64,000 bases of DNA from Escherichia coli (lineage in GTDB: Bacteria; Pseudomonadota; Gammaproteobacteria; Enterobacterales; Enterobacteriaceae). Within the stretch, counting starts at the first letter, position 1. Each line of letters starts with the position of its first letter. A program made the position numbers and the translations under genes. Below, one piece after another: positions 14,519 to 14,756 of this stretch. The stretch lies in NCBI RefSeq assembly GCF_003334255.1, contig NZ_QOWU01000002.1; one strand, 5' to 3'. The notes beneath the pieces were generated by a model. That model was not told where the DNA came from, did no database searches, and saw nothing but the letters and a program-made list of their open reading frames with translations.

Positions 14519-14756
14519 CTGCCGGATGCGGCGTAAACGCCTTATCCGGCCTACGGTTCAGGCACAGGTTTGTAGGCCTGATAAGACGCGTAAGCGTCGC
14601 ATCAGGCAATGGTGCTCGGATGCCGGATGCGGCGTAAACGCCTTATCCGGCCTACGGTTCAGGCACAAGTTTGTAGGCCTGATAAGACGGGTAAGCGTCG
14701 CATCAGGCAATGGTGCTCGGATGCCGGATGCGGCGTGAACGCCTTATCCGGCCTAC
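14519..14756. repeat. REP/BIME cluster: ~102-bp unit repeated about 2.3 times, each unit carrying inverted REP palindromes
   Basis: Direct repeats of tgccggatgcggcgtaaacgccttatccggcctacggttcaggcaca(a/g)gtttgtaggcctgataagacg.gtaagcgtcgcatcaggcaatggtgctcgga seen at ~14519, ~14621, partial at ~14723. Confidence 0.9.

Follow-up and report, generated by a model that had tools for sequence, protein, structure and literature searches.

BIME-2 elements are defined as z2 and y REPs placed in inverse orientation and repeated as tandem copies with short linkers; within one locus the copies show good conservation, and their number varies among strains (Ton-Hoang et al. 2012, PMC3333891). BIME-1 elements consist of a Y and a Z1 REP in single copy with a long L linker that carries an IHF site, and the transposase TnpA-REP is able to assemble multiple REPs and, in vitro, cleaves BIMEs and recombines them (same reference). 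The BIME-2 array REP325, located between yjdM and yjdN, provided the unit on which the Rfam naRNA4 model (RF02564) was built. A 2026 preprint describes REP325 as a partly Rho-dependent terminator and stabiliser that gives rise to a ladder of hairpin-ended RNAs.

The general properties of such elements, including REP hairpins, tandem amplification, copy-number variation between strains, gyrase cleavage and RNA 3' ends at hairpins, have been known for decades. In this study, a repeat array between copA and ybaQ was analyzed in a 64,000-nt stretch of Escherichia coli DNA, referred to below as the window (RefSeq assembly GCF_003334255.1, contig NZ_QOWU01000002.1). The array is a BIME-2 element, an ordinary member of this class, and is already catalogued. 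It corresponds to an entry of table DS3 in Sutormin et al. 2018, "BIMEs2 507807-508042, 235 bp", which uses older coordinates; the offset of approximately 778 bp was confirmed via the neighboring elements of that list, which are the REPs at approximately 21.8 kb and 5.9 kb in the window.

As a textbook BIME-2 in the K-12 reference genome, the array has little significance beyond annotation housekeeping. Three of its properties are useful for annotation and strain typing: a series of alleles with 0, 1, 3, 5, 7 or 9 REPs, a difference of one unit between K-12 and B strains, and two RNA 3' ends.

Structure of the array and its position between copA and ybaQ

The region from 13838 to 15838 of the window was the exact reverse complement of positions 507500–509500 of E. 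coli K-12 MG1655 (NC_000913.3), and window positions (p) were converted by MG1655 = 523338 - p. The array was identical, base for base, to that of MG1655. The genes copA and ybaQ are convergent, with a 315-bp spacer between their stop codons, and the array lies entirely within this spacer, in keeping with the extragenic position of REPs, at distances of 56 nt from the copA stop codon and 21 nt from the ybaQ stop codon. The features are listed in Table 1.

Table 1. Features at the copA-ybaQ locus and RNA elements elsewhere in the window (positions and strands are those of the window)
Feature	Position	Strand	Basis or remark
copA, Cu+ exporting P-type ATPase	11959..14463	+	ORF list; RefSeq annotation of the identical MG1655 sequence
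Whole BIME-2 array, 2.4 x 101-bp unit, five REPs	14520..14757	.	Tandem Repeats Finder; = MG1655 508,581-508,818
Y-type REP 1, GTAG head on - strand (inverted REP on + strand)	14520..14554	-	Exact Y-pattern match
17-nt head-to-head linker, copy 1 (short S-type position), GGTTCAGGCACAGGTTT	14555..14571	.	Dissection
RNA 3' end (Term-seq), MG1655 508771 (+ strand there), 5 nt past CTAC end of Z2a, in linker copy 1	14567	-	Adams et al. 2021
Z2-type REP a (Z2a), scan-pattern Z2 reference of the array	14572..14608	+	Pattern scan; hairpin approximately -21.9 kcal/mol
RF02564 (naRNA4) match, Y2 + linker + Z2a	14575..14652	-	89.3 bits, model 1-77
12-nt tail-to-tail linker, copy 1, ATGGTGCTCGGA	14609..14620	.	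Dissection
Y-type REP 2	14621..14655	-	Pattern scan, dissection
17-nt head-to-head linker, copy 2, with G-to-A variant	14656..14672	.	Unit alignment, dissection
RNA 3' end (Term-seq), MG1655 508673, 8 nt past CTAC end of Z2b, in linker copy 2	14665	-	Adams et al. 2021
Z2-type REP b (Z2b), with C-to-G change	14673..14709	+	Pattern scan, dissection
RF02564 (naRNA4) match, Y3 + linker + Z2b	14676..14753	-	79.9 bits, model 1-77
12-nt tail-to-tail linker, copy 2	14710..14721	.	Dissection
Y-type REP 3, terminal partial unit, loop variant GTGAAC	14722..14756	-	Alignment, pattern scan, dissection
ybaQ, HigA-family antitoxin / DNA-binding regulator	14779..15120	-	RefSeq annotation, mapping
sroB (ChiX) sRNA	16051-16134	-	Rfam, above gathering score
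DnaX ribosomal frameshifting element	29918-29982	-	Rfam, above gathering score
Small SRP RNA (ffs)	46785-46881	-	Rfam, above gathering score

Tandem Repeats Finder reported a head-to-tail repeat with a period of 101, 2.4 copies, 97% matches, 0 indels and a score of 455. This bears out the preliminary description of a tandemly duplicated REP/BIME unit at this site, with the correction that the unit, given there as approximately 102 bp, is 101 bp long. Alignment of the units (14520–14620, 14621–14721 and a partial third of 36 nt at 14722–14757) revealed three variant positions in total. Two of them, G/A at unit position 48 (cacaGgtt vs cacaAgtt) and C/G at unit position 70 (gacgCgtaa vs gacgGgtaa), are exactly the examples given in that description; the third, A/G at position 16, is found only in the partial copy.

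Each 101-bp unit was found to consist of an inverted Y-type REP of 35 nt, a 17-nt linker, a Z2-type REP of 37 nt and a 12-nt linker. Pattern scan and dissection thus recovered the two inverted REP palindromes per unit that had been proposed and gave the order iY-Z2-iY-Z2-iY, with five REPs in the array. All five are imperfect palindromes of 35 or 37 nt, within the 30–40 nt typical of REPs; they carry GTAG on the 5' side of the stem foot (read as CTAC on the opposite strand) and a mismatch inside the stem that forms a bubble, and each folds with -17.5 to -21.9 kcal/mol. As RNA, single REPs gave approximately -21 kcal/mol on either strand (-21 kcal/mol for the hairpin of Y-type REP 1 alone), with the exception of Z2b, for which -18.6 and -17.5 kcal/mol were obtained on the two strands. 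The weaker hairpin of Z2b (-18.6 vs -21.9 kcal/mol) is due to the C-to-G change, by which the top stem pair is lost. Adjacent REPs can alternatively pair as one long hairpin (-42 to -51 kcal/mol). On both strands, the whole spacer gave much stronger folds than shuffled sequences (z = -8.8 and -7.9).

The array belongs to a repeat family that is dispersed throughout the genome. The REP core GCCKGATGCGRCG had 11 matches in the window, five of them inside the array, vs 0.56 expected from shuffled sequences (approximately 20-fold), and across 5,426 complete E. coli genomes the 101-bp unit had a median of 29 matches per genome. Several mechanical ORFs span the array (e.g., 14472–14738 on the + strand and 14558–14710 on the - strand); they were set aside, the sequence being a dispersed palindromic repeat between two annotated genes.

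Comparison with the BIME-2 family in the Gilson/Bachellier nomenclature showed no difference of substance. Like other members, the array has Y and Z2 REPs alternating in inverse orientation, short linkers, near-identical tandem copies (0–2 differences per 101 bp within arrays), a strain-variable copy number of 0, 1, 3, 5, 7 or 9 REPs, and an extragenic position between convergent genes. The linkers, which in this family are named S, s, l or r, were compared by length and measure 17 nt head-to-head and 12 nt tail-to-tail. Copies inside the array are at least 98% identical, and linkers differ between BIME-2 loci; taken together, this favors local amplification over separate insertions. The window itself provides such a second locus: a BIME-2 pair at 21814–21891, composed of Z2, a 12-nt linker and an inverted Y, matched RF02564 with 74.3 bits, above the threshold, and its linker (21850–21861) reads tcgagagccaaa, unlike ATGGTGCTCGGA of the copA-ybaQ array.

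BIME-1 elements, including the IHF-binding RIP elements, share with the array REPs of one superfamily and an extragenic position. They differ from it in having Z1 and the long L linker, where the array has Z2 and linkers of 12 and 17 nt. An identity as BIME-1 or RIP was ruled out by the Z2 REPs, the short linkers and the absence of an IHF consensus. IHF binding, suggested earlier among the possible roles of the array, was not upheld: IHF sites belong to the L linker of BIME-1, and the consensus WATCAANNNNTTR had no match in 14464–14778 with one mismatch allowed.

A REP effect involving the stop codon and trans-translation requires a REP no more than about 15 nt from the stop codon. At this locus, the first stem base lies 57 nt from the stop codon of copA and 26 nt from that of ybaQ. 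In a pattern scan, no intrinsic terminator or promoter was found in 14464–14778.

Directly after the copA stop codon, a GC-rich hairpin was observed at 14478–14505 (GGATGCGC...GCGCAT), which is not followed by a T run. Weak REP-like similarity was present at 14473–14551, as a partial match of 30 bits to the Rfam naRNA4 model. The hairpin also occurs, with a better stem, in a REP-free B2 allele and therefore lies outside the amplified array; it may be a decayed REP or a native 3' hairpin of copA.

Copy number of the unit among E. coli genomes

The two unique flanks of the array (300 bp of copA and 300 bp of ybaQ) were searched for in 5,426 complete E. coli genomes, of which 5,422 contained the locus, 4,791 with the flanks joined. 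Allele classes were determined from 60 records sampled evenly down the match ranking. In this sample the spans were discrete, lying 101 bp apart with a smallest step of 56 bp. They measured 657 bp (14 records, 0 REPs), 713 bp (13 records, 1 REP), 814 bp (10 records, 3 REPs), 915 bp (13 records, 5 REPs, the allele of the window), 1016 bp (2 records, 7 REPs) and 1117 bp (1 record, 9 REPs); the remaining 7 records matched the copA flank only and have no REP number. The array thus gains and loses whole 101-bp units between strains, and the variation in copy number anticipated in the preliminary description was confirmed across E. coli genomes as 0–9 REPs. Approximately one quarter of the sampled genomes have no REP at this site and approximately one eighth match by the copA flank only; therefore, the array cannot be essential.

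Eight further genomes were dissected, at least one for each class of REP number. The REP-bearing alleles had identical left and right borders and differed in the 101-bp register, and every examined allele with 3 or more REPs was closed by the terminal GTGAAC variant. With u denoting a pristine unit, u* a unit with two variants and y' the terminal partial Y, the K-12 allele is [u][u*][y'], that of the B/BL21-type laboratory strains DL21 and T7Express and of the human isolate 65COLEC is [u][u][u*][y'], and that of ETEC1702 and O157:H7 Z1816 is [u][y']. The difference between K-12 (5 REPs) and the B strains (7 REPs) is exactly one pristine 101-bp unit, which offers a simple marker by PCR size to separate the two laboratory lineages. 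In the REP-free allele of clone D i14, a B2 strain, the spacer measures 57 nt and its right half is unrelated to the K-12 flank.

The flanks of DL21 (7 REPs) and ETEC1702 (3 REPs) matched as well as those of K-12-derived strains (5 REPs). Such flanks, matching K-12 equally well yet joined to 7, 3 or 5 REPs, indicate that the changes in unit number are recent; that they recur is indicated by PapRG-06-5, in which 9 REPs stand between flanks with B2-like divergence (97.5% identity). The earlier suggestion of a recent duplication is therefore supported, by alleles that differ in whole units, share the same borders and have 3, 5 or 7 REPs next to K-12-like flanks.

Tandem repeats of approximately 100 bp are in principle open to miscounting by short-read assemblers, and the repeat count could be an artefact of assembly collapse or expansion; no positive evidence for this was found. 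The window is the MG1655 reference sequence here, and BW2952 and an MG1655-derived strain also span 915 bp, which excludes the collapse or expansion that had been named as the finding that would overturn the duplication. Moreover, two B-lineage genomes agree at 7 REPs, and among thousands of complete genomes the alleles sort into discrete classes spaced 101 bp apart. Steps of exactly 101 bp between unchanged borders argue for true polymorphism, and the chance that the count is artefactual is practically negligible.

Judging from the allele sequences, unequal recombination or slippage would be the simplest explanation for gain and loss of units in exact register. The array would grow and shrink by unequal recombination or replication slippage between the near-identical 101-bp units, and a REP-associated transposase may contribute. 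The array resembles the REPIN/RAYT (TnpA-REP) system in its inverted REP doublets able to form one hairpin of -42 to -51 kcal/mol, and the sequences that TnpA-REP needs (GTAG, stem mismatch, and an inverted partner with C|T sites) are present in all five REPs. It differs in the exact 101-bp register with fixed borders, which is explained equally well or better by unequal recombination or slippage. The RAYT gene of K-12, yafM, lies outside the window.

RNA 3' ends and gyrase sites at the array

Published Term-seq data place two 3' ends of ybaQ-strand RNA inside the array (Adams et al. 2021, supplementary file 1). Both were mapped exactly, since their 30-mers are single-copy in the window owing to the unit-specific variants. 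They are genome-wide calls classed as "orphan", without assignment to ybaQ. No 3' end on the copA strand within the array was found among the Term-seq calls of that study. The same study lists a Rho termination region from a bicyclomycin experiment at MG1655 509429 (+ strand; Rho score 8.9). This corresponds to window position 13909 on the - strand, antisense to the 3' part of copA and approximately 610 nt past the array. Its location within antisense copA indicates that transcription in the ybaQ direction reads through the BIME and approximately 600 nt further into copA.

A pattern has been described in which Rho terminates transcription downstream and the RNA is afterwards shortened by exonucleases as far as a stable hairpin, often a REP, so that REPs protect Rho-terminated transcripts (Dar & Sorek 2018, following Peters et al.). 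In the 2026 preprint, on the other hand, mRNAs ending at REPs did not have longer half-lives genome-wide. In the supplements of Harris 2026, copA appeared only in the differential-expression list. The Term-seq ends and the Rho region downstream of them match the pattern of Rho termination followed by trimming to a hairpin, resemble the combined terminator and stabiliser behavior of REP325, and fit the usual role of a REP in a 3' UTR, as a barrier to exonucleases or a partial terminator. Hairpins that stabilize transcripts had been among the functions first proposed for the array, and the published ends, which on the ybaQ strand follow shortly after the Z2 hairpins, are consistent with that proposal.

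Taken as a whole, the locus is very probably a BIME-2 array that was amplified locally and whose hairpins end ybaQ-strand RNAs in the 3' region shared by copA and ybaQ. Transcription from ybaQ would pass the array and be halted downstream by Rho, 3'-to-5' exonucleases would trim the RNA back to the REP hairpins of approximately -21 kcal/mol, and the block at the hairpin would set and protect the RNA 3' end. Some termination may occur inside the array itself, and copA RNA may undergo the same trimming and protection.

REP325 is similar to the array in its tandem two-hairpin units of Y, linker and Z2, and the RNA ends in the copA-ybaQ array, approximately one unit apart, resemble the REP325 ladder. 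It differs in having twelve hairpins within an operon, as compared with five between convergent genes, and in its linker sequence. Both full tail-to-tail Y/Z2 pairs exceeded the RF02564 gathering score of 59.5 bits; on the + strand the scores were 63.6 and 64.0 bits (model 1-77), and the ybaQ strand was therefore the best strand, as seen from Table 1. The Term-seq ends lie 8 and 11 nt beyond the two model matches on the matching strand, and RNAs with these ends would include whole units. These observations would suit units that encode naRNA4-like noncoding RNAs, associated with the nucleoid, which bind HU and condense the chromosome, a function proposed for REP325 units by Qian et al. 2015. 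A match to RF02564 tells of the sequence family only and not of function, because the model effectively profiles any BIME-2 tail-to-tail pair. In addition, the 2026 preprint, whose authors include members of the original laboratory, found nucleoid volume unchanged upon deletion of REP325 or overexpression of REP325/naRNA4, found no REP-REP contacts in Hi-C, and regards REP325 as a local 3' UTR element. We therefore consider an HU-binding RNA from this array very improbable indeed.

Gyrase was considered as a DNA-level alternative, in which the array would serve as a strong cleavage site, independent of transcription, that relieves positive supercoiling between the convergent copA and ybaQ units. 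Gyrase cleavage sites (GCSs) are over-represented in BIME-2 elements genome-wide, Y REPs are preferred for cutting, and the signal at REPs rises when transcription is blocked. The array interval contains 2 cleavage sites with ciprofloxacin (Sutormin et al. 2018, table DS3), as compared with approximately 0.24 expected by our own arithmetic (4635 sites over 4.52 Mb). However, no site was recorded there with rifampicin plus ciprofloxacin, microcin B17 or oxolinic acid (Sutormin et al. 2018), and two sites fall below the cut-off of 3 or more that defines the 13 "enriched" BIME-2s; strong sites such as tldD-yhdP have 35. Many strains, moreover, have no REP at the locus. The data for modest gyrase cleavage, above expectation and well below the strong BIME-2 sites, are suggestive but weak; gyrase binding, as proposed earlier, thus has the ciprofloxacin sites in its favor and lacks sites with the three other treatments. 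A main role at the DNA level appears unlikely.

A more plausible alternative, although still the lesser possibility, is that the array has no host function, being a selfish or neutral member of the REP/REPIN class that was seeded and amplified by a REP-associated tyrosine transposase and by recombination and is merely tolerated between convergent genes. Alleles carry anything from 0 to 9 REPs without a sign of constraint, clone D i14 (B2-type allele) lacks the array, the class with the 57-nt spacer made up 14 of the 60 sampled genomes, and the GTAG and stem mismatch needed by TnpA-REP are kept in all five REPs. On the other side, the RNA 3' ends at the hairpins show that local transcripts are affected, at the molecular level at least, and convergent gene pairs with REPs are more highly expressed genome-wide (2026 preprint). 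This alternative is largely compatible with the preferred reading of a locally amplified BIME-2 whose hairpins end ybaQ-strand RNAs, and differs from it only on whether that effect is under selection.

Unit number is probably near neutral. It is quite improbable that the number of units (0 to 9 REPs) acts as a heritable dial on the interpenetration of copA and ybaQ transcription and on mRNA stability; such a dial would set the level of the copper exporter lineage by lineage while promoter and coding sequence stay unchanged. Since unit number is all that distinguishes the natural alleles, the locus could be used as a test bed for the tuning of convergent genes by REP number.

The ybaQ region in other strains and other elements of the window

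Matches to the copA flank only accounted for approximately 12% of the complete E. coli genomes, and the two examined, WP5 and GN03551, were both without an intact ybaQ. In WP5, the spacer between copA and ybaP is 428 bp long, GC-rich and REP-free. In GN03551, Y-S-Z2 and a partial Y are kept and most of ybaQ is lost. Clone D i14 (B2) retains between ybaP and ybaQ a RelE/ParE toxin pseudogene with a frameshift, where K-12 has only 137 bp. The ybaQ locus (14779–15257 in the window, and its counterparts) looks like a decaying toxin-antitoxin cassette.

The Rfam matches elsewhere in the window, namely the DnaX element, sroB and ffs, all belong to what one expects in this region of the K-12 chromosome. 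Isolated matches to the REP core were observed at 5944–5956, 33367–33379 and 58500–58512.
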